64,000 bases of DNA. Origin: Escherichia coli (GTDB lineage: Bacteria; Pseudomonadota; Gammaproteobacteria; Enterobacterales; Enterobacteriaceae). This document shows positions 6,947 through 54,575 of this stretch, in pieces; position 1 is the first letter of the stretch, and each line of letters starts with the position of its first letter. Position numbers and translations under genes: made by a program. The DNA lies in NCBI RefSeq assembly GCF_013122565.1, contig NZ_CP053258.1. One strand, 5' to 3'. Below the pieces are notes generated by a model. The model saw nothing but the letters and a program-made list of their open reading frames with translations. It had not been told where the DNA came from and ran no database searches.

Positions 6947-7882
6947 ATGGCACTGCCAATTCTGTTAGATTGCGACCCAGGTCATGACGATGCTATCGCA
7001 ATAGTTCTCGCCCTCGCCTCACCAGAGCTTGATGTCAAAGCAATTACGTCTTCCGCCGGAAACCAGACACCAGAAAAAACCTTACGCAATGTTCTGCGTA
7101 TGCTGACCTTGCTTAATCGCACCGATATTCCGGTAGCCGGCGGCGCGGTAAAACCGTTAATGCGTGAGTTGATTATCGCGGACAATGTGCACGGCGAAAG
7201 CGGTCTGGATGGCCCGGCATTACCGGAACCGACGTTTGCACCGCAAAACTGTACGGCGGTGGAGCTGATGGCGAAAACGCTACGTGAAAGTGCGGAACCT
7301 GTCACAATTGTGTCTACCGGACCGCAAACTAACGTTGCCTTGCTGCTCAATAGCCTCCCGGAACTGCATAGCAAAATTGCCCGTATCGTGATTATGGGCG
7401 GCGCAATGGGGCTTGGTAACTGGACGCCTGCGGCTGAATTTAATATTTACGTTGACCCGGAAGCGGCAGAAATTGTCTTCCAGTCAGGGATCCCGGTGGT
7501 GATGGCCGGTCTGGATGTTACTCACAAAGCACAAATCCACGTTGAAGACACCGAGCGTTTCCGCGCGATTGGCAACCCTGTTTCAACCATTGTTGCCGAA
7601 CTGCTGGATTTCTTCCTCGAATATCATAAAGACGAAAAATGGGGTTTTGTCGGCGCACCGCTGCATGACCCATGCACCATCGCCTGGTTGTTGAAACCGG
7701 AGTTGTTTACCACTGTTGAGCGCTGGGTTGGCGTGGAAACACAGGGGAAATATACCCAGGGTATGACGGTTGTTGATTATTATTATCTGACTGGCAATAA
7801 ACCGAATGCCACCGTAATGGTCGATGTTGATCGTCAGGGCTTTGTTGATTTACTGGCTGATCGTCTGAAATTTTACGCTTAA
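6947..7882 (+). CDS. rihA: Pyrimidine-specific ribonucleoside hydrolase, 311 aa
   Basis: ATG at 6947 with AAGGAG upstream; N-terminal DCDPGHDDA nucleoside-hydrolase aspartate motif. Confidence 0.9.
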
Positions 7883-7965
7883 CACACGTCATTGATTAAG
7901 ATCACCACGCGTTACCTGGGTGGTCTTAATCTGTTTATCTCTTTTTCTTTCAAGATATAAATGCA

Positions 7966-9636
7966 ATGGATAATGCAGAACTCGCCATTGGTATCGATCT
8001 CGGTACTACCAATAGTTTAATTGCCGTCTGGAAAGACGGTGCCGCGCAATTAATTCCAAATAAGTTCGGTGAATATTTAACACCATCCATAATTAGCATG
8101 GATGAAAATAATCATATTTTAGTCGGAAAACCGGCTGTATCACGGCGTACTTCGCATCCGGATAAAACGGCAGCGTTATTTAAACGTGCAATGGGCAGTA
8201 ATACCAACTGGCGGTTAGGCAGCGACACATTTAACGCGCCAGAACTGTCCTCTTTGGTATTACGCTCATTAAAAGAAGATGCCGAAGAATTTCTGCAACG
8301 TCCAATTAAAGATGTGGTGATCTCCGTTCCGGCTTATTTCAGCGATGAACAACGCAAGCATACCCGTTTAGCAGCGGAGTTAGCCGGGTTAAATGCGGTA
8401 CGCTTAATTAATGAACCCACAGCAGCTGCAATGGCGTATGGCCTGCATACCCAACAAAATACCCGTTCGCTGGTGTTTGATCTCGGTGGCGGCACGTTTG
8501 ACGTTACGGTGCTTGAGTACGCCACGCCGGTGATTGAAGTTCACGCCTCCGCTGGCGACAACTTTCTTGGTGGCGAAGATTTTACCCATATGCTGGTCGA
8601 TGACGTTTTAAAGCGCGCGGATGTCGCCAGGAACACGCTTAACGAGAGTGAACTGGCAGCCTTGTACGCCTGCGTAGAAGCGGCAAAATGTAGTAATCAA
8701 TCGCCAATGCACATTCGCTGGCAGTACCAGGATGAAACGCGGGAGTGCGAATTTTACGAGAACGAACTGGAAGATTTGTGGTTGCCGCTGCTCAATCGCT
8801 TGCGAGTGCCGATTGAACAGGCGTTGCGCGATGCGCGTCTGAAGCCGAGTCAAATCGACAGTCTGGTGCTGGTTGGCGGCGCGTCACAAATGCCGCTGGT
8901 GCAGCGAATCGCCGTGCGTCTGTTTGGCAAATTACCGTATCAAAGTTACGATCCGAGCACCATTGTCGCGCTGGGCGCAGCAATCCAGGCCGCCTGCCGC
9001 TTACGCAGTGAAGATATTGAAGAAGTGATCCTCACTGATATTTGCCCTTACTCGTTGGGTGTTGAAGTTAACCGTCAGGGCGTATCCGGCATTTTCTCGC
9101 CGATTATTGAACGAAACACCACAGTACCGGTGTCGCGTGTAGAAACGTACTCGACCATGCACCCGGAGCAGGATTCAATTACGGTTAACGTCTATCAGGG
9201 AGAAAACCACAAAGTTAAAAATAACATTCTGGTGGAATCCTTCGATGTGCCGTTGAAGAAAACCGGGGCTTATCAGTCGATTGATATTCGTTTTAGTTAT
9301 GATATCAACGGCTTGCTTGAAGTTGACGTACTTCTGGAAGACGGCAGCGTTAAGTCCAGAGTCATTAATCATAGCCCGGTAACATTGAGCGCGCAGCAGA
9401 TCGAAGAGAGTCGGACGCGGTTATCCGCATTGAAAATTTATCCGCGCGATATGCTCATCAATCGCACCTTTAAAGCCAAACTGGAAGAGTTGTGGGCGCG
9501 AGCGCTGGGTGACGAGCGAGAAGAGATTGGCCGGGTGATCACCGATTTTGATGCGGCGTTGCAGTCAAACGATATGGCCCGCGTCGATGAGGTCAGGCGG
9601 CGGGCGAGCGATTATTTAGCCATTGAGATCCCATAA
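7966..9636 (+). CDS. hscC: Hsp70-family chaperone HscC, 556 aa
   Basis: Hsp70 signatures IDLGTTNS and DLGGGTFD in translation; shorter than DnaK; AT-rich codon usage. Confidence 0.9.
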   Translation: MDNAELAIGIDLGTTNSLIAVWKDGAAQLIPNKFGEYLTPSIISMDENNHILVGKPAVSRRTSHPDKTAALFKRAMGSNTNWRLGSDTFNAPELSSLVLRSLKEDAEEFLQRPIKDVVISVPAYFSDEQRKHTRLAAELAGLNAVRLINEPTAAAMAYGLHTQQNTRSLVFDLGGGTFDVTVLEYATPVIEVHASAGDNFLGGEDFTHMLVDDVLKRADVARNTLNESELAALYACVEAAKCSNQSPMHIRWQYQDETRECEFYENELEDLWLPLLNRLRVPIEQALRDARLKPSQIDSLVLVGGASQMPLVQRIAVRLFGKLPYQSYDPSTIVALGAAIQAACRLRSEDIEEVILTDICPYSLGVEVNRQGVSGIFSPIIERNTTVPVSRVETYSTMHPEQDSITVNVYQGENHKVKNNILVESFDVPLKKTGAYQSIDIRFSYDINGLLEVDVLLEDGSVKSRVINHSPVTLSAQQIEESRTRLSALKIYPRDMLINRTFKAKLEELWARALGDEREEIGRVITDFDAALQSNDMARVDEVRRRASDYLAIEIP

Positions 9637-9644
9637 ACACGGCT

Positions 9645-9676
9645 GCCGGATGCGGCGTAAACGCTGCATCCGGCAT
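9645..9676. repeat. REP-like palindromic unit between convergent hscC and djlC
   Basis: GCCGGATGCGGCGTAAACGCTGCATCCGGC with GCCGGATGC/GCATCCGGC arms. Confidence 0.6.
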
Positions 9677-9694
9677 CGGCGCCAAAACACATCG

Positions 9695-11146
9695 TCAACT
9701 AAACAACATCGCGATTTTGCCGAGAGCATAACCTATCACCAGCACCGTTAAACTGATTTTGATAATGCCGGTAATGCTCTGTGGTTTTTCATCCTCATCA
9801 TTTTTTTCTTCATGGTTTTCAGGTGTTGGCTCATCGACATCTTCATCCTCCGGCTCGAGTTTCACTTTCGTCAACAGCATCCGGGTGATGATGGCCTCTA
9901 ATGGATGAGCATCTCCACCTTCCAGCCTTGTATTAAGACGGGCCAGCATCTCTTGTTTCGGAAACGCTTCAAGTACTACCTGTTCCGCTACCCGATACAA
10001 ATCCAGTAACGGTGAATCTTGCTCTGTCTCGCTACCGACTCTCGATTTCCACCACGCCCATGCTTTGCGCTTGAAAAATAACGATTCAATAAACGATTGA
10101 CCTAACGGCGATAATTTTCCGCTATGTAAAATTTCCGCCCATAACAGCCGCGTCCGGGCGCTCTCACCAGGAACATATTTCAACGGTTTACCTTGCACAT
10201 CAACCATGCTCTGCGCTTCGATAACCATCACTAACAGCGCGAAATAATCCGGGCAATGTTGTGCGCTCCACTGCAACAACAAATTATCGGCTTGTGTAGA
10301 TGGGTAACTCTCCCGGTATGCGCAGAGATCGGCAAGCAGGCTTTCCCCCTCGCCGCAGTACAAACGTTGTGCACACTGGTAATACCGGGCATCTTCGCTT
10401 TCTGGTTCTTCCATTTGCCACTGTTGGGCAACAGGAATGAGTTCCGCCATACCTGTTTGCACCGAGCTGTACCAGCGCAACAGTTTGCGATGTAACTTTG
10501 CATCATCAGGAATGAACCACGGACCTTCCATCGCCAAAAACGCAGTGACATAGTCAGGATGGTAACGGCAGCAACGTTCCAGCGCGAAGTAATACTCAAC
10601 AGTCTGGTTCTGCAACGCAACAGGATATTCCAGAAGGCTAAGGAAATCGAAACAATCACCAGCCTGAATGGCCTCAAGAAAAGCCTCCCTTTCTTCCTCA
10701 TCCATTCCTTCGCTGTCATTAAACGAATGCCAGTTCAAACGCTCTGCCAGCAAAGAAGCACAATTTAATGAAAGATATCGCGCTTCTATAGCGATTGCAC
10801 ACAGCGGCCAGCGTAATTGATCGACATCCTCCATGTTCCAGGTATTTAATTGCTGAATAAATTTCTGCCAGGCGGAGGGCTGAAAACGATCACTTTCTGA
10901 ATCCAGTAATGCCCTGAATGCACATAGTATTTCATGTTCAGCGGCAGCATCTTTTTCTTCATCATCTGCTTCCTCGACAGGATTTACCGCCAATCGCAAG
11001 GCCTCTTCATAGGCCTGGCGTAATGCTTTAAACCCCTGCGGATCGGTTTCGGGATGACACAACGGTAAGCGAGCAAGATAAGCCTGGCGGATAATGTCTA
11101 TTTGCGTCGTGCTTTCAATTTCGAGGATTTGCCAACATGTTTTCAT
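9695..11146 (-). CDS. djlC: J-domain co-chaperone DjlC (HscC partner), 483 aa, C-terminal membrane anchor
   Basis: N-terminal J-like domain (…[18 protein letters not shown]…); hydrophobic C-terminal tail; overlaps ybeU stop by 4 nt. Confidence 0.85.
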
Positions 11147-11850
11147 AGGTCGCTCACATCCTTAAGCGTTACCGGGCATTCAGGCTGGACAGTCAATGGC
11201 TGCCAGGGAAGCGTGGCATAGAAACGATCGCTTCCCGCTGCCAGCTCTTCGAACATCCGACTCCCGGCGCTATCGTATTTGTACAGGGTTAGCGCCTCGC
11301 GTAACGAAGCGTTGTCTTCGCATTGAGAAGATTGCCAGTAGAGACGCCCTAGTGAATAGGCAGAAAAATAGTGCATCCAGCTGTGATAGTAATGGTGTGC
11401 TCGGACGTAGACGCGCGATTGCAGCCATAAACTCTCGTCTTCCGTCAGCCACTTGTTGAGCACACCGACCCGTGACAGAAACCCCATTCGAACATAATCC
11501 CAGGCTTTGATTCCACCTTCTCCACAGCACATAGCGGTTTGGGCAACGAATTGGGTATAAATCAACCCTCTCTCCGAGCCACCAGCAATTAATGCTTTCC
11601 ACTCTTCAGGGGAAGAGCGATGCCATGTCAGATATAAGCCAGCTAAATCATTAGCATGACCATCATCAGTCATCTGATAAATAGTCTGAATTAAATCATC
11701 ACGATTATTTATTCCCCAGGATGATGAGAGATCGAATTCTTTTATCCCAGTATACATTTTCGGCGAGTCATGCGCGGGTTTGCAACCCTGATTAAGTATT
11801 TCCATTGGCGCAGAAAGCGCAAAAAGAAGATATTGTTCTTCCTTATTCAT
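11143..11850 (-). CDS. ybeU: DUF1266-family protein YbeU, 235 aa
   Basis: ORF 11143..11850; paralogous to ybeR in this window; translationally coupled to djlC. Confidence 0.85.
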
Positions 11851-11951
11851 TTGTTAATAATCCCTTAAGTGCATTAACTGACTACTTTTTTATTATTGAT
11901 GAGTATAAACTTGACGCTTTCAAAATAAAAAGAAAATCGAATCATTCACAG

Positions 11952-12506
11952 ATGAATAAAAAATTAATGTATATATTCGCAATATTTATAGTTGCAGCAA
12001 TTACCTGTATTAGCCAACCCAAGAAAACGACGTTGCGTGATAAAGCCATGGCGAATTATGCCTTTGATTATTTAAGCTCACCAGGCAGTCTTCCATTCAC
12101 CACGGCAGCCACGGAGCTTTCCGCGATTCATGGTCACTCAACGTCGCAATATCGCCTTGGCGAATTTTATCTTCATGGTAGCGACGGGAAACCACTGGAT
12201 TATACACAGGCGAGATACTGGTATGAGCAATCAGCAGAACAGGAAAATCCACGCGCGCAAAGTAAACTGGGGTGGATCTACCTCAAAGGTCTGGGGGTCA
12301 AACCCGACACCCGTAAAGCAATTCTCTGGTATAAGGAAGCAGCTGAACAAGGGTATGCTCATGCTCAATATACTTTAGGTTTGATCTACAGAAATGGCTC
12401 AGGTATTAATGTTAACCATTATGAATCTCAAAAATGGTTAAAACTGGCCGCCAAACAACATTACAAAAATGCGGAAAGATTACTTGCCGGGCTTCCCGCA
12501 CATTAA
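11952..12506 (+). CDS. ybeT: Sel1-repeat protein YbeT, 184 aa
   Basis: Internal ATG at 11952 (MNKKLMYIF..., signal/TM-like N-terminus); Sel1-type repeats; longer ORF from 11805 rejected. Confidence 0.75.
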
Positions 12507-12515
12507 CGTCGACGG

Positions 12516-13943
12516 TCACCCGAACAGATGGAGTATTTTCCCTATCAAACCAGCAAAGATAAAAATATAGAAAATAATTTTGATGACGCCCAGACAGCCC
12601 GGCCCACCATCATCAACGGGCATTGGTTGCGGTTGCGGCTCCGGTTCGACGGTTTGCTTCTCGGCAAAATTCGCCGACTGAATTAATAACCGTCGAATAA
12701 TTAATGCCTCCAGAGGACAACGATCTTCTGCATCAAGGCGGCTCACAATCGGCATTAATGATTCTTCTGTAGGTTGGCTGGCCTGCACTAATTGTTTGGC
12801 AACTAGATATAATGGCCATAAGGTATGTTCTGTATCACGCGTGAGTGAGATCCGCGGCTTACGTCCTTTGTGCAAAACCATCTCGACCAGTGAACGCCCC
12901 AGAGCAGAGAGTTTTTCATCGCTGAGTATTTCGTATAAATGAAAACGCGTACGGGCGCTGTCGCCGGGGACATAAAGTAGCGGTTTTCCCTGGTCGTTAA
13001 CCAGTTCACGAGCTTCAATCATCATCACCACTAACGGGTAATAATCGACCCGATGCTGACGACACCATTGCAACATTAAAGCATCCGCCTGGGTGGAGGG
13101 ATACTCGCGCCAGTAGTCACAAAGTTCTGCCAGCAGGCTTTCGCCTTCTCCACAATAGACGCGTTGCGCGTATTCATAATAACGCGCATCTTCATTATCA
13201 GGTTCAGCTTCCCGCCACGACCGGGCGTAATCCAGGAGTTCGGGGATATCCAGGCGACCTGCGCTATACCAGCGGAGTAAATTTCTGTGCAGTTTTGCAT
13301 CATCGGGGATAATCACTGCGCGATGTTGCGATAAATACAATGTCAGCCATTCTGGATGCGATGACCAAATCCGGGCGAACATTTGGTAAAAATCGATGGT
13401 GTCATTTTGCACGGCAACGGGCAGATGCAGAATGGTCTGGAAGTTAAAAACATTTCCCTTCGCAATGGCATATAAAAAGGATTCCAGTTCTTCTTCGTCT
13501 ATTTCCCCGGTGTTTTCCTCCTGCAACCACCGCAATCTTTCTGCTAATAACACCACACACTCGAAGGATAAATGGGCAGTGTTCATGGCGATTGTGCACA
13601 GCGACCAGCGTAATTCATCAATCTCTTCCATTGAGCAATAATTTAATTGCTGAATGAATCGCTGCCAGGCGGAAGGCAGAAAACGTTCGCTATCAGAAGC
13701 AAGTAAAGCACGAAAGGCGAGCAGAATTTCATGTTCTGCTACCTCATATTCTTCTGGTTGCCAAACAGATTTAGCAGGCGACTGCGCAATCCGTAGCGCC
13801 TCCTCATACGCCTGACGAAGTTGTTTAAAACCCTGCGGATCGGTTTCTGGATGAAAGGACGGTAACAGCGCCAGATAAGCGCGGCGGATAATATCGACGT
13901 CAGTCGTTTCCTCTATGTTGAGGATCTTCCAGCAATTTTTCAT
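12516..13943 (-). CDS. djlB: J-domain co-chaperone DjlB, 475 aa, C-terminal membrane anchor
   Basis: Paralog of djlC (N-terminal [39 protein letters not shown]); hydrophobic C-terminus. Confidence 0.85.
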
Positions 13944-14647
13944 AGGTCGCTCATATCCTTAAGCGTTTCAGGGCATGCAGAATAGTAAGCCAATGGTTGC
14001 CAGGACAAGGTAGGGTAATACGCATCATCACTGGCAAATAATTGATAAAACATATCATTGCCGGAATCGTCGTATTCTTTACGCGCTAAGAATTCACGTA
14101 ATAACTGAAGATTATCATCTTCGGGAGACTGCCAATATTGCCGACCAAAGGTATAACCGGCAAAGTATTGCTGCCAGTTACTATAATAACGTAGCGCCCG
14201 TAGATGAATGCGCGACTGGATCCATAGACTTTCTTCTTCGCTCAACCAGTTATTAAGTACGCCCATTCGGCTTAAAAAACCCATCCGGACATAATCCCAG
14301 GCTTTGATTCCCCCTTCGCCACAGCATTCGGCGGTGCTGGCGACAAATTGCGCATAAGCCTGACCTTGCTCATTTAGTTCAGCAAGATAGTCACGCCATT
14401 CACACGGAGAATAACGAAACCAGCGGTGATAAAACCCTGCCAACCGAGCGGCATGACCGTTATCGATCATTCGGTGAATTGTGCGCAGCAGGTCATCACG
14501 GTCATCAATTCCCCATGAGGAAGAAAGGTCAAAAAAGCATGTACCTAAATACATTTTGGGAGATGAATGCGAAGGTAAACAGCATTCATTGCGTATTTCC
14601 ATCGGAGTGGAAAGTGCAAACAATATTTTTTGCGACCCCATGTCCAT
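13940..14647 (-). CDS. ybeR: DUF1266-family protein YbeR, 235 aa
   Basis: ORF 13940..14647; paralog of ybeU; 4-nt overlap with djlB start. Confidence 0.85.
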
Positions 14648-14804
14648 ATAATTTATCCTTAAACATTCATTTAATGAATGTAAACTACATTTCGAGACTC
14701 AGTTATTTATACTTTTCTGACGCAACATAATACGCATAAAATAAGGCTTACGCAAAAATGGAACACATAAAAATATAATATGTTTTATCTACAACCATAA
14801 GGAA

Positions 14805-15788
14805 ATGATAATGATTTTTACGTCAAGTTGCTGCGATAATTTATCAATAGATGAGATTATCGAACGTGCTGAAAAAGGCGATTGCGAGGCTCAATATATT
14901 GTTGGGTTTTATTATAATCGCGATAGCGCAATTGACTCTCCGGACGACGAAAAGGCCTTTTACTGGCTGAAGCTGGCCGCTGAGCAAGGTCATTGTGAAG
15001 CACAATATTCCTTAGGGCAAAAGTATACCGAGGATAAAAGCCGTCATAAAGATAATGAGCAAGCCATCTTTTGGCTGAAAAAAGCTGCCCTACAAGGCCA
15101 TACTTTCGCTTCCAACGCCCTTGGCTGGATACTGGATCGTGGAGAAGACCCCAACTATAAAGAAGCGGTTGCCTGGTATCAGATAGCCGCGGAGAGCGGA
15201 ATGTCTTATGCGCAAAATAATCTTGGGTGGATGTACAGAAATGGCAACGGAGTCGCACAAGACTATACGCTGGCATTTTTCTGGTACAAACAAGCTGCAT
15301 TACAAGGCCATAGTGACGCGCAAAACAATCTGGCCGATCTTTATGAAGACGGAAAAGGCGTTGCTCAAAACGAGACACTCGCCGCATTCTGGTATTTGAA
15401 AAGCGCACAGCAGGGTAATCGGCATGCTCAGTTTCAAATTGCATGGGATTATAACGCTGGCGAAGGGGTGGACCAGGACTATAAGCAAGCGATGTACTGG
15501 TATCTGAAGGCTGCCGCTCAGGGGAGCGTCGGCGCTTACGTCAACATCGGTTATATGTATAAACACGGACAAGGCGTTGAGAAAGATTATCAGGCCGCCT
15601 TTGAATGGTTTACGAAAGCCGCTGAATGCAATGACGCCACAGCCTGGTATAACCTGGCCATTATGTATCACTACGGAGAAGGAAGACCTGTCGATCTCCG
15701 ACAGGCTCTCGACCTGTATCGTAAAGTTCAGTCATCCGGAACCAGAGATGTCAGTCAAGAAATTCGTGAGATTGAAGATTTACTGTAG
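14805..15788 (+). CDS. ybeQ: Sel1-repeat (TPR-like) protein YbeQ, about 325 aa
   Basis: Multiple Sel1 repeats (…A.WY.KAA.QG… pattern) in translation; start may be the ATG at 14811. Confidence 0.85.
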   Translation: MIMIFTSSCCDNLSIDEIIERAEKGDCEAQYIVGFYYNRDSAIDSPDDEKAFYWLKLAAEQGHCEAQYSLGQKYTEDKSRHKDNEQAIFWLKKAALQGHTFASNALGWILDRGEDPNYKEAVAWYQIAAESGMSYAQNNLGWMYRNGNGVAQDYTLAFFWYKQAALQGHSDAQNNLADLYEDGKGVAQNETLAAFWYLKSAQQGNRHAQFQIAWDYNAGEGVDQDYKQAMYWYLKAAAQGSVGAYVNIGYMYKHGQGVEKDYQAAFEWFTKAAECNDATAWYNLAIMYHYGEGRPVDLRQALDLYRKVQSSGTRDVSQEIREIEDLL

Positions 15789-15857
15789 AGATAAAAACAA
15801 GGGCCGGGGAATTTCATTCGGCCCATATTCTATTTATTACTCTGCGTAATCAGACTA

Positions 15858-16340
15858 TTACGGCTCAAACGGGCGTCTCTGGAACTGATCATGACCACAT
15901 TTCGGGCATAGCGTCAGCACTTCCGGTGTGTAGATCGGGAGATGGAAGTGACATTTCTCGCAGACCAGATTCCCCAGCCCTACCACTTCTCCGCTGTGAT
16001 AAACCCCATGATGATTGAGGTCCTGGAAAACTTCGCGCCATTCAAGCTGCGTTTTATCGGTGATGTCTGCCAGCTCCTGCCATAAGCTTTCTTTAATCAC
16101 CCGCATAAAGACGCTGTCAGATTCTTCTTTCAGGCTCTCTTCATAGCTCATGGCGAACTCTTCCAGGTCACGTCTGACAGCTCGCGTCAGCTCATCGACC
16201 TCGGTTCGCGTTAACTCCCCTGTTTTTATTACGCGCTCGCGCGCCTGTTCCACCAGTGCGTCGATATCACGTTCGCCATTGCGCAGACGTTCGCTCAGTG
16301 ACGCGACCAGTTCACGGTAATATTGAGCAACCTTGTTCAT
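15858..16340 (-). CDS. ybeL: Zinc-ribbon DUF1451 protein YbeL, 160 aa
   Basis: ORF 15858..16340; C-terminal CEKCHF…CPKCG zinc-ribbon. Confidence 0.85.
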   Translation of the reverse strand: MNKVAQYYRELVASLSERLRNGERDIDALVEQARERVIKTGELTRTEVDELTRAVRRDLEEFAMSYEESLKEESDSVFMRVIKESLWQELADITDKTQLEWREVFQDLNHHGVYHSGEVVGLGNLVCEKCHFHLPIYTPEVLTLCPKCGHDQFQRRPFEP

Positions 16341-16574
16341 CGTTTCATCTCCCGGGTCGTTAACTGACTATAATAATAGACGTTCTTTGTTCCTTGCTTT
16401 GCTAATACGCCCACAAACTCTGTAAATTAATGTATGAATAATCCGGGCATCATTTCAACGTCGAGTGCGCGAAAGGCTGTTTTGACGCGGACGTTTGGGC
16501 TATGCTATGCGGATCTGAAAAACCACCTCAACGCTACATTTGTAGCCGTATTGAAAACAGGACCACTGGCTGCC

Positions 16575-19157
16575 ATGCAAGAGCAATACCGCCCGGAAGA
16601 GATAGAATCCAAAGTACAGCTTCATTGGGATGAGAAGCGCACATTTGAAGTAACCGAAGACGAGAGCAAAGAGAAGTATTACTGCCTGTCTATGCTTCCC
16701 TATCCTTCTGGTCGACTACACATGGGCCACGTACGTAACTACACCATCGGTGACGTGATCGCCCGCTACCAGCGTATGCTGGGCAAAAACGTCCTGCAGC
16801 CGATCGGCTGGGACGCGTTTGGTCTGCCTGCGGAAGGCGCGGCGGTGAAAAACAACACTGCACCGGCACCGTGGACGTACGACAACATCGCGTATATGAA
16901 AAACCAGCTCAAAATGCTGGGCTTTGGTTATGACTGGAGCCGCGAGCTGGCAACCTGTACGCCGGAATACTACCGTTGGGAACAAAAATTCTTCACCGAG
17001 CTGTATAAAAAAGGCCTGGTATATAAAAAGACTTCTGCGGTCAACTGGTGCCCGAACGACCAGACCGTACTGGCGAACGAACAAGTTATCGACGGCTGCT
17101 GCTGGCGCTGCGATACCAAAGTTGAACGTAAAGAGATCCCGCAGTGGTTTATCAAAATCACCGCTTACGCTGACGAGCTACTCAACGATCTGGATAAACT
17201 GGATCACTGGCCAGACACCGTTAAAACCATGCAGCGTAACTGGATCGGTCGTTCCGAAGGCGTGGAAATCACCTTCAACGTTAACGACTATGACAACACG
17301 CTGACCGTTTACACTACCCGCCCGGACACCTTTATGGGTTGCACCTACCTGGCGGTAGCTGCGGGTCATCCGCTGGCGCAGAAAGCGGCGGAAAATAATC
17401 CTGAACTGGCGGCCTTTATTGACGAATGCCGTAACACCAAAGTTGCTGAAGCTGAAATGGCGACGATGGAGAAAAAAGGCGTCGATACTGGCTTTAAAGC
17501 TGTTCACCCATTAACGGGCGAAGAAATTCCCGTTTGGGCAGCAAACTTCGTATTGATGGAGTACGGCACGGGCGCAGTAATGGCGGTTCCGGGGCACGAC
17601 CAACGCGACTACGAGTTTGCCTCTAAATACGGCCTGAACATCAAACCGGTTATCCTGACGGCTGACGGCTCTGAGCCAGATCTTTCTCAGCAAGCCCTGA
17701 CTGAAAAAGGCGTGCTGTTCAACTCTGGCGAATTCAACGGTCTTGACCATGAAGCGGCCTTCAACGCCATCGCCGATAAACTGACTGCGATGGGCGTTGG
17801 CGAGCGTAAAGTGAACTACCGCCTGCGCGACTGGGGCGTTTCTCGTCAGCGTTACTGGGGCGCGCCAATTCCGATGGTAACGCTGGAAGACGGCACTGTG
17901 ATGCCGACCCCGGACGACCAGCTGCCTGTGATCCTGCCGGAAGATGTGGTGATGGACGGCATTACCAGCCCGATTAAAGCAGATCCTGAGTGGGCAAAAA
18001 CTACCGTTAACGGTATGCCAGCGCTGCGTGAAACCGACACTTTCGACACCTTTATGGAGTCCTCCTGGTACTATGCGCGCTACACTTGCCCGCAGTACAA
18101 AGAAGGTATGCTGGATTCCGAAGCGGCTAACTACTGGCTGCCGGTGGATATCTACATTGGTGGTATCGAACACGCCATTATGCACCTGCTCTACTTCCGC
18201 TTCTTCCACAAACTGATGCGTGATGCAGGCATGGTGAACTCTGACGAACCAGCGAAACAGTTGCTGTGTCAGGGTATGGTGCTGGCAGATGCCTTCTACT
18301 ATGTTGGCGAAAACGGCGAACGTAACTGGGTTTCCCCGGTTGATGCTATCGTTGAACGTGACGAGAAAGGCCGTATCGTGAAAGCGAAAGATGCGGCAGG
18401 CCATGAACTGGTTTATACCGGCATGAGCAAAATGTCCAAGTCGAAGAACAACGGTATCGACCCGCAGGTGATGGTTGAACGTTACGGCGCGGACACCGTT
18501 CGTCTGTTTATGATGTTTGCTTCTCCGGCTGATATGACTCTCGAATGGCAGGAATCCGGCGTAGAAGGGGCTAACCGCTTCCTGAAACGTGTCTGGAAAC
18601 TGGTGTACGAGCATACAGCAAAAGGAGATGTTGCGGCACTGAACGTTGATGCACTGACTGAAGATCAGAAAGCGCTGCGTCGTGATGTGCATAAAACTAT
18701 CGCTAAAGTGACCGATGATATCGGCCGTCGTCAGACCTTCAACACCGCAATTGCGGCGATTATGGAGCTGATGAACAAACTGGCGAAAGCACCGACCGAT
18801 GGCGAGCAGGATCGCGCTCTGATGCAGGAAGCTCTGCTGGCCGTTGTCCGTATGCTTAACCCGTTCACCCCGCACATCTGCTTCACGCTGTGGCAGGAAC
18901 TGAAAGGCGAAGGAGATATCGACAACGCGCCGTGGCCGGTTGCTGACGAAAAAGCGATGGTGGAAGACTCCACGCTGGTTGTGGTGCAGGTTAACGGTAA
19001 AGTCCGTGCCAAAATCACCGTTCCGGTGGACGCAACGGAAGAACAGGTTCGCGAACGTGCTGGCCAGGAACATCTGGTAGCAAAATATCTTGATGGCGTT
19101 ACCGTGCGTAAAGTGATTTACGTACCAGGTAAACTCCTCAATCTGGTCGTTGGCTAA
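16575..19157 (+). CDS. leuS: Leucyl-tRNA synthetase, 860 aa
   Basis: ATG at 16575; HMGH (HIGH) and KMSKS motifs in translation; upstream in-frame extension rejected. Confidence 0.97.
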
Positions 19158-29981: not shown

Positions 29982-30935
29982 GTGGATAGTAATAATCAAA
30001 TTGAACCCTGTTTAAGCAGAAAGTCGTCAGAAGGTAAACCACAAATATTTACAACCTTACGAAATATTGATCTTAACCTTCTGACTATTTTTGAAGCTGT
30101 ATATGTACATAAAGGGATCGTTAATGCAGCGAAAGTGCTTAATCTGACCCCCTCGGCAATCAGTCAGTCTATACAGAAACTGCGCGTTATATTCCCTGAC
30201 CCATTGTTTATTCGCAAAGGCCAGGGTGTTACTCCTACCGCATTTGCGATGCATCTACATGAGTATATCAGTCAGGGCCTTGAGTCCATTCTTGGCGCAC
30301 TGGATATCGAAGGAAGCTATGATAAGCAACGAACGATAACTATCGCGACCACCCCCTCGGTCGGAGCCCTGGTCCTTCCTGTCATCTATCGGGCGATTAA
30401 AACTCACTATCCGCAGCTTTTACTGCGCAACCCGCCCATCAGCGACGCGGAAAACCAACTCAGTCAGTTTCAAACTGATCTCATCATCGATAACATGTTT
30501 TGCACCAATCGAACGGTGCAACATCATGTTCTGTTCACCGACAATATGGTGTTAATTTGCCGCGAGGGAAATCCACTACTCTCTTTAGAAGATGACAGAG
30601 GGACTATCGACAACGCTGCGCATGTACTCCTGTTACCGGAAGGGCAAAATTTCAGCGGTCTACGGCAGAGAGTTCAAGAGATGTTTCCGGACCGGCAAAT
30701 CAGTTTCACCAGCTACAACATTTTGACAATCGCTGCACTGGTTGCCAACAGTGACATGTTAGCGATTATTCCCAGCCGTTTTTATAACCTGTTTCGCCGT
30801 TGCTGGCCGCTGGAAAAACTGCCTTTTCCGTCCTTAAATGAGGAGCAAATTGATTTCTCTATCCACTACAACAAATTCAGCCTGCGTGATCCCATCCTGC
30901 ACGGAGTAATAGATGTTATCCGTAATGCATTTTGA
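29982..30935 (+). CDS. ybeF: LysR-family transcriptional regulator YbeF, 317 aa
   Basis: GTG start at 29982; N-terminal HTH (…AAKVLNLTPSAISQSIQKLR…); AT-rich gene. Confidence 0.85.
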   Translation: MDSNNQIEPCLSRKSSEGKPQIFTTLRNIDLNLLTIFEAVYVHKGIVNAAKVLNLTPSAISQSIQKLRVIFPDPLFIRKGQGVTPTAFAMHLHEYISQGLESILGALDIEGSYDKQRTITIATTPSVGALVLPVIYRAIKTHYPQLLLRNPPISDAENQLSQFQTDLIIDNMFCTNRTVQHHVLFTDNMVLICREGNPLLSLEDDRGTIDNAAHVLLLPEGQNFSGLRQRVQEMFPDRQISFTSYNILTIAALVANSDMLAIIPSRFYNLFRRCWPLEKLPFPSLNEEQIDFSIHYNKFSLRDPILHGVIDVIRNAF

Positions 30936-34243: not shown

Positions 34244-34804
34244 TCAAAACTGAAAGCGCATCCAGGCAAAGTACACATTGCCATTGTTGTAGGTACCCGG
34301 AATGTAGGTCATCTGAAAAGTCACTGGACCATAACCCACGGAGGCCAATGGCAGTAGAACCGGGAGAGGGATGTAATTCCAGTTATCGCGCGCCGTTACG
34401 CCGGCGGTGAATCCCAGACCTAAATGAAAATTTTCATCCGCCAGCGGTCGCCAGGTACTTTCCCATCCGTATCCGGCAATCGGTTCCCATTTGTTCCACG
34501 AGTCCTTAAATGCCATGGCATACAGGCCATGCCAGTTTCCTTTTTCATCCCAACGCGACTGACCAAAACCGCCACCCCACGGTCGCTCGTTATAGCGATC
34601 GGTTTTTTCTTTGTCGTAAGCGAAACGTGCATGCCAGGTGATGGCAGGAATATATAAATCATAATGTTCAGGCTGTTGCCAGGTTTGTGCAATATTTTCT
34701 CTAAACGTTGTCATCCACTCATCTGCGTTAGCAAAAACTTTACCAACGCTGATTAACTGAATAAAAACAAAGGAAAATATAGCGACATATTTACTCACGT
34801 TCAT
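34244..34804 (-). CDS. pagP: Lipid A palmitoyltransferase PagP, 186 aa
   Basis: Start at internal ATG ([14 protein letters not shown]…); signal peptide plus beta-barrel-like sequence. Confidence 0.9.
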
Positions 34805-35290
34805 TTGTGACCATAAAACATTTATCAAAAATCTACTACTAGCATAGCAAAGCTACAATTAACATAACCTTAATAGCTCCAACATAAAGAATAATCTGAA
34901 TAGCTGCTCTATTTATTTCCGCTTGTTTAAGTTAAATATTTCCGCGCATCGATTTAAAATGATACATCGTTTTCTGCGATGGGAATAGTCATAAAAGAAA
35001 AAGCAAGTTATTACTGATAACAAAATGCAATCAAGAAAAAAATGACTTATTTTTTAATAAGATACAAAAAATTATCTTAACAAAGAATATATTATATATC
35101 GTCAACCCACGCCCATTATAGATTATTTTTTGAGCACACAACCGCAGCTAACACCATTGCAATTAACAAATTTGCATCAATCTACCATCAATTTACACAC
35201 ATTATTATGTGATAATTGCCAACTGTTAAATATGCGTTTTGTTATCTATGTATAAAAACAGCAACTTCAATGTCTTAATGGCAGTTTTTC

Positions 35291-53672: not shown

Positions 53673-54575
53673 ATGGCCAATCTCTACGACCTGAAAAAGT
53701 TCGACTTAAATCTTCTTGTCATCTTTGAGTGCATTTATAAACACTTAAGCATAAGCAAGGCTGCTGAGTCATTATATATCACTCCATCAGCAGTGAGTCA
53801 GTCGTTACAACGCTTACGTGCGCAATTTAATGACCCTTTATTCATTCGCTCAGGAAAAGGTATCACGCCAACTACGACAGGGTTAAATTTACACAATCAC
53901 CTTGAGAAAAACCTCAGAGGTCTTGAGCAAACAATCAATCTTGTTAATAAATCGGAAGTAAAGAAAAATTTTATTATCTACGGTCCTCAGCTCATCTCCT
54001 GTTCTCATAACCGCATGCTGATCCGCTGCCTACGGCAAGATACCTCGGTCGAGATTGAGTGCCATGACACACTTATTTCAGCCGAGAATGCTGAAGAACT
54101 GTTGGTTCATCGCAAAGCCGATCTGGTGATCACTCAAATGCCAGTGATCAGTCGTTCCGTCATTTGTATGCCATTGCATACGATTCGTAATACCCTAATT
54201 TGTAGTAATAAACATCCCCGGATTACAGATACCAGTACTTACGAACAAATTATGGAAGAAGAGTTCACCCAATTAATTTCCAAATCATCGGGGCTTGATG
54301 ACATTCAAATGGAAATAGACGAGAGGTTTATAAATCGTAAAATTGCCTTTCGTGGCTCCTCTTTATTGGCGATCATAAATAGCATTGCGATTACAGATTT
54401 GCTAGGAATAGTTCCCTTTGAACTTTATGAATCCCACCAAGAATCTCTTAATTTAAAGGAAATAAAACTAGAGCACCCCCTACCCTTGGTTAAGCTTTAC
54501 ATTTGTTACAACAAGACTTCTCTAAACAACCTGGCATTCTCACGATTCATTGACAGATTGAATGATAATTCTTGA
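53673..54575 (+). CDS. ybdO: LysR-family transcriptional regulator YbdO, 300 aa
   Basis: N-terminal HTH (ISKAAESLYITPSAVSQSLQRLR); AT-rich gene. Confidence 0.85.
   Translation: MANLYDLKKFDLNLLVIFECIYKHLSISKAAESLYITPSAVSQSLQRLRAQFNDPLFIRSGKGITPTTTGLNLHNHLEKNLRGLEQTINLVNKSEVKKNFIIYGPQLISCSHNRMLIRCLRQDTSVEIECHDTLISAENAEELLVHRKADLVITQMPVISRSVICMPLHTIRNTLICSNKHPRITDTSTYEQIMEEEFTQLISKSSGLDDIQMEIDERFINRKIAFRGSSLLAIINSIAITDLLGIVPFELYESHQESLNLKEIKLEHPLPLVKLYICYNKTSLNNLAFSRFIDRLNDNS

Follow-up and report, generated by a model that had tools for sequence, protein, structure and literature searches.

An HscC Hsp70 locus of Escherichia coli and the conserved association of DUF1266 proteins with HscC-type chaperones and their J-proteins

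Genes and features between rihA and ybeL

We analysed a stretch of 64,000 nucleotides from the Escherichia coli contig NZ_CP053258.1 (assembly GCF_013122565.1; hereafter the window), concentrating on a block at 7966-15788 that encodes the Hsp70 HscC, the J-proteins DjlC and DjlB, the DUF1266 proteins YbeU and YbeR, and the Sel1-repeat proteins YbeT and YbeQ. An open reading frame (ORF) scan recovered the seven genes in the order hscC, djlC, ybeU, ybeT, djlB, ybeR and ybeQ, flanked by rihA (ending at 7882) and ybeL (15858-16340), which reproduced the order and coordinates given in an initial annotation of this DNA. The 8.9-kb stretch from 7500 to 16400 was matched in 5,424 of 5,426 complete E. 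coli genomes, with 96-98% identity among the matches listed and with the same RefSeq gene names from rihA to ybeL. We also note that the longer stretch 7500-19157 diverged by 1.3-2% from each of the 5,426 genomes, with best identities of 98.0% (the locus), 98.4% (hscC) and 98.7% (leuS); the lineage of the window probably lies outside those represented among complete E. coli assemblies.

hscC (7966-9636, plus strand), which takes its name from a RefSeq gene that is 96-98% identical, encodes a specialised Hsp70 of 556 amino acids (aa) with the full architecture of a nucleotide-binding and a substrate-binding domain. HscC is neither DnaK nor HscA, and its scores were below both NCBIfam cut-offs (385 bits compared to 648 for DnaK; 380 compared to 709 for HscA). 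Its description as lid-truncated in the initial annotation was overstated: HscC aligns with DnaK chains over residues 6-541 and reaches residue 585 of E. coli DnaK, and it is shorter through internal deletions, with a C-terminal tail of only ~10-15 residues (PMC8215388). Its identity to DnaK is ~28%, and HscC has been argued to lack GrpE contacts and probably to release nucleotide fast (PMC8215388). In the published account of the system (Kluck et al. 2002, as reviewed in PMC8215388), the ATPase of HscC is stimulated by DjlC, while none of DnaJ, CbpA and HscB has this effect, and the literature also reports Cd2+ and UV phenotypes. The HscC-DjlB/DjlC interaction, which the initial annotation took as known, is indeed a published partnership. 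At the loci from other bacteria described below (L004-L091), the C-termini of HscC-type proteins displayed a loosely conserved acidic-then-hydrophobic motif (...LDELRL/RY/RF in Pseudomonas, ...DYLAIEIP in Escherichia). This motif is reminiscent of the EEVD tail of Hsp70s to which tetratricopeptide repeat (TPR) co-chaperones bind, and by analogy the TPR-like domain of Djl or the Sel1 proteins could dock on it.

The J-proteins are encoded by djlC (9695-11146, minus strand; 483 aa) and its paralogue djlB (12516-13943, minus strand; 475 aa), whose products are 53% identical over 427 aligned residues. In the AlphaFold2 model, DjlC comprises a J-domain with an HPE motif (residues 1-55), a TPR-like helical region (~70-430), a disordered acidic linker and a transmembrane helix (458-482). 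Although the match of DjlC to the Pfam DnaJ model was weak, the HPE motif is present in both DjlC and DjlB, between helices II and III, where class C J-domains have HPD or the tolerated variant HPE (PMC13254874). Hydropathy analysis gave one C-terminal hydrophobic segment in each protein (457-475 in DjlC, 446-464 in DjlB), such that both have the form of a tail-anchored protein, in which a single hydrophobic helix lies within ~30 residues of the C-terminus and an N-terminal signal is lacking. These results bear out the proposal that the J-proteins are membrane-anchored, and insertion of DjlC into the membrane has been reported (Peschke 2018, as cited in PMC8215388).

Each J-protein gene is paired with a DUF1266 gene: ybeU (11143-11850, minus strand; 235 aa) with djlC, and ybeR (13940-14647, minus strand; 235 aa) with djlB. 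As the initial annotation had stated, each pair is coupled by a 4-nt overlap, and in both cases this is an ATGA stop/start overlap (11143-11146 and 13940-13943). The two djl-DUF1266 units are tandem duplicates, with a period of 2797 nt and a DNA identity of 71-76%. YbeU matched DUF1266 (Pfam PF06889) over model positions 2-175 of 175 (E=7.8e-45), YbeR is 58% identical to YbeU, and the predicted structure of YbeU is confident and all-alpha. In an alignment of 28 diverse DUF1266 sequences (A1, which includes YbeR), R121, R127, W158, G168 and W172 were invariant, and W45, H65, W117, D118 and E139 were nearly so. A phmmer search of 1.84 billion representatives yielded 367 DUF1266 relatives at E values up to 0.001. 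We considered a nucleotide-exchange factor as an identity for DUF1266 and rejected it, having found no match of the GrpE, BAG or armadillo type; the review cited above likewise has HscC without GrpE contacts and with probably fast nucleotide release.

The two Sel1 genes are transcribed divergently from the pairs, as initially annotated, across AT-rich spacers that we take as promoter regions. ybeT (11952-12506, plus strand; 184 aa) encodes a hydrophobic segment (residues 2-20) followed by three Pfam Sel1 repeats, and is separated from ybeU by 11851-11951, of which 11851-11942 has a GC content of 25%. We kept the annotated start of ybeT at 11952 rather than a longer ORF with a TTG start at 11805. 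ybeQ (14805-15788, plus strand; 327 aa) encodes a cytoplasmic protein of eight Pfam Sel1 (PF08238) repeats with no hydrophobic segment, and the spacer between ybeR and ybeQ (14648-14804) has a GC content of 26%. The convergent genes at either end of the block meet at inverted repeats. hscC and djlC converge, across a spacer of 64% GC, on a G+C-rich palindrome resembling repetitive extragenic palindromic (REP) elements (GCCGGATG...CATCCGGC at 9644-9675; 15-nt arms, 93% complementary), which from its sequence is likely to be a bidirectional terminator; the convergent ybeQ and ybeL have in common a terminator-like hairpin (15801-15824, plus strand).

The base composition of the block differs modestly from its surroundings. 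The initial annotation had called the block visibly AT-richer, and we did find a lower GC content than in the rest of the window (46.9% compared to 50.9%) and a lower mean GC at third codon positions (GC3), by which we compared codon usage (0.456 for the seven genes; 0.562 for the 53 other ORFs; Mann-Whitney P = 6e-5). However, hscC itself (49.7% GC; GC3 of 0.526) is within the range of the core genes and cannot be distinguished from them. The AT-richness is located in the djl, ybe and Sel1 genes, with the lowest GC content of the locus in ybeT, and is strongest in the two divergent spacers. Other genes of the window are also AT-rich and are ordinary annotated genes, namely citR (53673-54575; 39% GC), ybeF (29982-30935; 45%) and pagP (34244-34828; 46%). 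The AT-rich genes and spacers of the locus fit its published regulation by H-NS and SlyA: overexpression of SlyA raises expression of ybeT and ybeU-djlC, both of which are listed in the H-NS regulon (PMC5797941), and in strain 042 at 25 C, mutation of hns de-represses one DUF1266 gene ~300-fold (PMC7582179). We take the locus to be silenced by H-NS under laboratory conditions; it is also dispensable.

Co-occurrence of DUF1266, Djl and HscC-type genes in other bacteria

With a YbeU-like alignment (A2) we searched the genomes of 100,044 species; the search relied on one peptide pattern, and the alignment, being narrower than A1, biases the result toward gamma-proteobacteria. We obtained at least 78 loci, mostly from Pseudomonas but also from Erwinia, Rahnella, Pectobacterium, Brenneria, Marinobacter, Bowmanella, Klebsiella and Escherichia. 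After the DUF1266 gene come a Djl homologue and then an HscC-type Hsp70 in 74 of the 78, and the four others are truncated where a contig ends. Of the 78 DUF1266-Djl junctions that we examined at these loci, 73 show the ATGA overlap, and the HscC gene is convergent in 69 of the 70 loci scored. All-against-all clustering showed that DUF1266, Djl and HscC are the only families common to 14 genus or species groups, and that the flanking genes differ. The trio is likewise present at a locus of Vibrionaceae at which the DUF1266 protein has just 29% identity.

We inspected individually nine contexts of DUF1266- or Djl-family proteins beyond the enterobacterial locus, eight of them outside the gamma-proteobacteria. 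One DUF1266 representative (P0258) unites in one chain an HPE J-domain, which has 51% identity with the J-domain of DjlC, TPR repeats and DUF1266. When used as a query, P0258 retrieved a large firmicute family with a J-domain, PF27158 (DjlB_C_2nd) and TPR, and HPE was present in 89 of the 124 J-proteins examined from this search. In Brevibacillus, an Hsp70 gene (566 aa) is followed by djl (878 aa) and DUF1266 (320 aa), and the same order holds in Clostridium sp. P21 (566, 858 and 224 aa). Bacillus sp. FJAT-52991 has an Hsp70 (567 aa) followed by a fusion of J-domain, DjlB_C_2nd, TPR and DUF1266, and the alpha-proteobacterium Novosphingobium terrae has an Hsp70 (573 aa) followed by a J-protein with an NPE motif and then DUF1266. 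Over 543 residues, HscC and the Hsp70 of Brevibacillus share 47% identity, and the four Hsp70s of Brevibacillus, Bacillus FJAT-52991, Pseudomonas fluorescens and the Vibrionaceae locus all scored below the DnaK and HscA cut-offs. Gene order, stop/start coupling, co-occurrence across phyla and fusions were thus all observed in this analysis.

The Sel1 genes do not belong to this conserved core. Those that we found beside the trio are confined to Escherichia, Salmonella and Citrobacter; we saw none at the loci examined from Klebsiella, Pseudomonas, Erwinia, Vibrionaceae and Firmicutes. The proposal that the whole block is a self-contained chaperone module therefore stands for HscC, the J-proteins and DUF1266, which recur together in 74 of 78 loci, in Firmicutes, in an alpha-proteobacterium and as fusions, but not for the Sel1 proteins, which judging by their distribution are best seen as companions of three genera and probably as lineage-specific adaptors. 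The two observations that the initial annotation had named as refuting the idea, core-like GC and codon use on the one hand and lack of conserved co-occurrence on the other, were not made: GC3 is lower and the co-occurrence is strong.

The J-proteins vary in length and motif. Long Djl forms (887-930 aa) have their N-terminal ~350 residues in common with DjlC and carry predicted C-terminal transmembrane segments, and in the one protein of this kind that we scanned against Pfam, from Pseudomonas fluorescens, the C-terminal region is a DUF805 membrane domain. Altered HPE motifs were noted in the distal Salmonella copy (FPPE, with the histidine reported lost; L004:10705-12144), in a Marinobacter Djl grouped with these histidine losses (HPPE; L064:10714-13506), and in the J-proteins of Caulobacter and Novosphingobium (NPE; L093:6001-7737 and L095:6001-7224). 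Such J-domains may depart from the usual way of stimulating the ATPase. We also came upon a piece of ybeU, with 98% identity to that of E. coli, at the end of a contig assigned to 'Paenibacillus sp. USDA918EY' (L010; NZ_WTWY01000015.1), which is probably contamination or mis-assembly.

Age and variation of the locus

Escherichia, Salmonella, Citrobacter and Klebsiella all have the module in the slot between gltL/rihA and ybeL, although the contents of the slot vary. Salmonella has two djl-DUF1266 pairs, one Sel1 gene and an extra ORF of 412 aa, Citrobacter has two pairs and one Sel1 gene, and Klebsiella spallanzanii has one pair and no Sel1 gene. The extra ORF lies between hscC and rihA in Salmonella enterica (L004:16153-17391) and is absent from the Escherichia window; it has no Pfam match on record and gave no NCBIfam match. 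Among Escherichia, Salmonella and Citrobacter, copies of both DUF1266 and Djl cluster by position, proximal with proximal and distal with distal. Thus, the Djl-DUF1266 duplication is older than the split of these three genera. Between genera, the flanking proteins are 91-96% identical, HscC is 81-82% identical, DUF1266 proteins at the same position are 63-71% identical, and Djl and the YbeQ-like Sel1 proteins are 53-60% identical. The ratio of nonsynonymous to synonymous substitution rates (dN/dS), measured against three Escherichia clades and one E. coli strain, was 0.02-0.06 for hscC, 0.09-0.15 for djlC and djlB, 0.02-0.09 for ybeU and ybeR, 0.05-0.13 for ybeT and ybeQ, and 0-0.07 for the flanking genes. 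With values of 0.02-0.15, all seven genes are maintained by purifying selection, though their proteins change faster than those of the flanks.

Within E. coli the locus is often reduced or absent. Among the 5,426 complete genomes, hscC is present in 4,376, djlB-ybeR in 3,712 and the whole block in 3,658, and a clean empty site, in which 44 nt separate rihA from ybeL, is found in 963. Variants include loss of the second unit, with hscC-djlC-ybeU-ybeT retained, and an IS1-associated deletion, such that the presence and absence of the locus are at least partly due to loss by deletion or IS1. A REP-like palindrome similar to that between hscC and djlC fills the 44-nt spacer of genomes without the locus (L003:1884-1927). 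The 151-nt empty-site junction that we used as a query was recovered at 99% identity or more from 828 genomes, and the 60 best matches listed did not differ from it at all, which suggests, from sequence similarity, one inherited allele.

The initial annotation had described the block as an island. Its atypical GC3 is in keeping with that term, except at hscC, but the other signs of a horizontally acquired island were lacking. The borders of the block have no flanking direct repeats, there is no tRNA gene in 1-30000, and the block contains no transposase or integrase ORF; nor is the distribution restricted or incongruent, the slot being fixed in four genera. The genes, moreover, are under purifying selection. 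We conclude that the locus is old and not a recent import. Carriage on mobile elements was considered and set aside: the E. coli 'plasmid' matches are largely megabase-scale records, apparently mis-labelled chromosomal sequence, and the two 'phage' matches are unannotated fragments of 1.5-2.6 kb. The sole plasmid matches besides these E. coli records are in Erwinia persicina, in which a YbeU-like DUF1266 gene is found on plasmids of 130-165 kb and not on the chromosome (H39-H42).

A proposed three-part HscC machine and its relation to known systems

We think it fairly probable that the locus encodes a three-component specialised Hsp70 machine in two co-chaperone versions, with DUF1266 as a subunit of the J-protein. 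In this machine, HscC would be the ATPase, and DjlC or DjlB would contribute an HPE J-domain and a TPR-like scaffold, tail-anchored on the cytoplasmic face of the inner membrane. YbeU or YbeR, synthesised in a constant ratio to its Djl partner by virtue of the ATGA coupling, would dock on this scaffold as a client-recognition or regulatory subunit, one that is detachable and sometimes fused; both this contact and the role of DUF1266 are what we infer here. The Djl-DUF1266 complex, membrane-bound in proteobacteria, would pick the client, and the J-domain would then trigger ATP hydrolysis by HscC, causing HscC to clamp the client. The Djl-DUF1266 unit was duplicated before Escherichia, Salmonella and Citrobacter separated, and the Sel1 genes were added in that lineage only, probably as extra adaptors. 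More generally, we hold with moderate confidence that DUF1266 is an obligate third component, either subunit or private client, of an ancient HscC-type Hsp70/HPE-J-TPR system in Proteobacteria and Firmicutes.

Several points weigh against this proposal. The starting point for finding the loci was DUF1266 or Djl, and not HscC. Two of the contexts that we inspected have incomplete sets: Paenibacillus ehimensis has djl followed by DUF1266 with no Hsp70 within 8 kb, and Caulobacter zeae has an Hsp70 followed by a J-protein only, with no DUF1266. Remoter DUF1266 domains occur in secreted or multidomain proteins that have no chaperone neighbours. No transmembrane segment was found in the firmicute Djl proteins; thus, membrane tethering is a proteobacterial feature and not general to the trio. 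Moreover, HscC, DjlB and DjlC are under the proteomic detection limit in growing E. coli (PMC8215388).

We also considered that DUF1266 might be a dedicated client or cargo, such that HscC and Djl fold, activate or recycle YbeU and YbeR, in the way that HscA and HscB serve IscU (PMC8215388). Gene linkage would suit a client as well as a subunit. The conserved cluster of Trp, His, Asp, Arg and Glu residues would then be a ligand-binding or catalytic site, and the conservation across the 28 diverse sequences is indeed strong and site-like. Furthermore, DUF1266 domains are stand-alone or secreted elsewhere, which implies a function of their own. We regard this explanation as possible but rather unlikely.

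Two further explanations give the locus a different purpose altogether. If it were a conflict or defence system, a membrane-tethered Hsp70 would sense or neutralise a protein of an invading phage or a membrane-attacking toxin. The patchy presence in E. coli (3,658 full loci and 963 clean empty sites among 5,426 genomes), the AT-rich and H-NS-silenced state of the locus, the variable copy number, and the divergence of Djl, DUF1266 and Sel1 proteins between genera (53-71% identity compared to 91-96% for the flanks) are all what such a system might display. However, PADLOC-DB v2 gave no significant match for HscC, DjlC, DjlB, YbeU or YbeR and only marginal PtuA matches for the Sel1 proteins, neither Djl nor DUF1266 has a PHROG family, and we saw no effector-type domain. 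The slot is fixed in four genera, selection is purifying rather than diversifying, and the module is on no phage, while plasmid matches, mis-labelled chromosomal records aside, are confined to Erwinia persicina. We consider a defence role very improbable. We give marginally less weight again to a mainly regulatory HscC that binds sigma-70 and damps housekeeping transcription, with Djl and DUF1266 setting the balance between free and membrane-held HscC. Overexpressed HscC is reported to co-purify with sigma-70 and to inhibit sigma-70-dependent transcription (Arifuzzaman 2002, as reviewed in PMC3861889), but that evidence is based on overexpression and implicates the ATPase domain rather than the substrate site (PMC3861889), and the J-TPR-DUF1266 partners and the membrane anchor would be left unexplained.

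HscC is the least understood of the three Hsp70s of E. coli. If the three-part machine is correct, this 'orphan' third Hsp70 would be one part of an assembly whose specificity resides in DUF1266, the constancy of DUF1266 as a partner of HscC and Djl across phyla would give a concrete handle on the client and purpose of HscC, and the Pfam domain DUF1266 would gain its first functional context. What is gained is a sharper hypothesis and not a new type of system, since the DNA of the locus is ordinary annotated E. coli sequence.

A close parallel is HscA-HscB-IscU of the isc operon, in which a private Hsp70 likewise has its own class C J-protein and an adjoining gene encodes a third protein, presented to the Hsp70 by the J-protein. 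The two differ in that DUF1266 has no sequence relationship to IscU, Djl is membrane-anchored with a TPR-like scaffold, and HscC falls below the HscA cut-off. The DnaK-DjlA pair is similar in that a J-protein tethered to the inner membrane brings an Hsp70 to the membrane. DjlA has an N-terminal anchor and a C-terminal J-domain. In contrast to DjlA, whose partner is DnaK (PMC8215388), the Djl proteins are tail-anchored, carry the HPE variant and are HscC-specific. The eukaryotic TPR J-proteins DNAJC3 and DNAJC7 resemble Djl in architecture only, with no detectable sequence homology to Djl and no DUF1266 partner. In DNAJC3/p58IPK and DNAJC7/TPR2 the J-domain is C-terminal, so that the order of domains is the reverse of that in Djl. 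YbeQ and YbeT are built of Pfam Sel1 repeats, as are the Sel1-like adaptors ExoR, AlgK, MotX and MerG, and have sub-cut-off matches to these models; however, with 30-101 bits compared to cut-offs of 330-700 they are members of none of these families, and their link to the trio is confined to three genera.

The system of E. coli K-12, HscC with DjlC and DjlB (Kluck et al. 2002; PMC8215388), is identical to that described here in genes, order, names, 96-98% DNA identity, HPE J-domains and tail anchors. In reviews of 2021 and 2026, HscC-DjlB/C is presented as a pair of two components. In the literature that we searched, YbeU/YbeR and YbeT/YbeQ go undiscussed and we found no link of DUF1266 to HscC and Djl, although gene-neighbourhood databases may already show one. 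Thus, the seven genes, their names and the HscC-Djl partnership were already established, and what is new here is DUF1266 as the putative conserved third partner of HscC and Djl.

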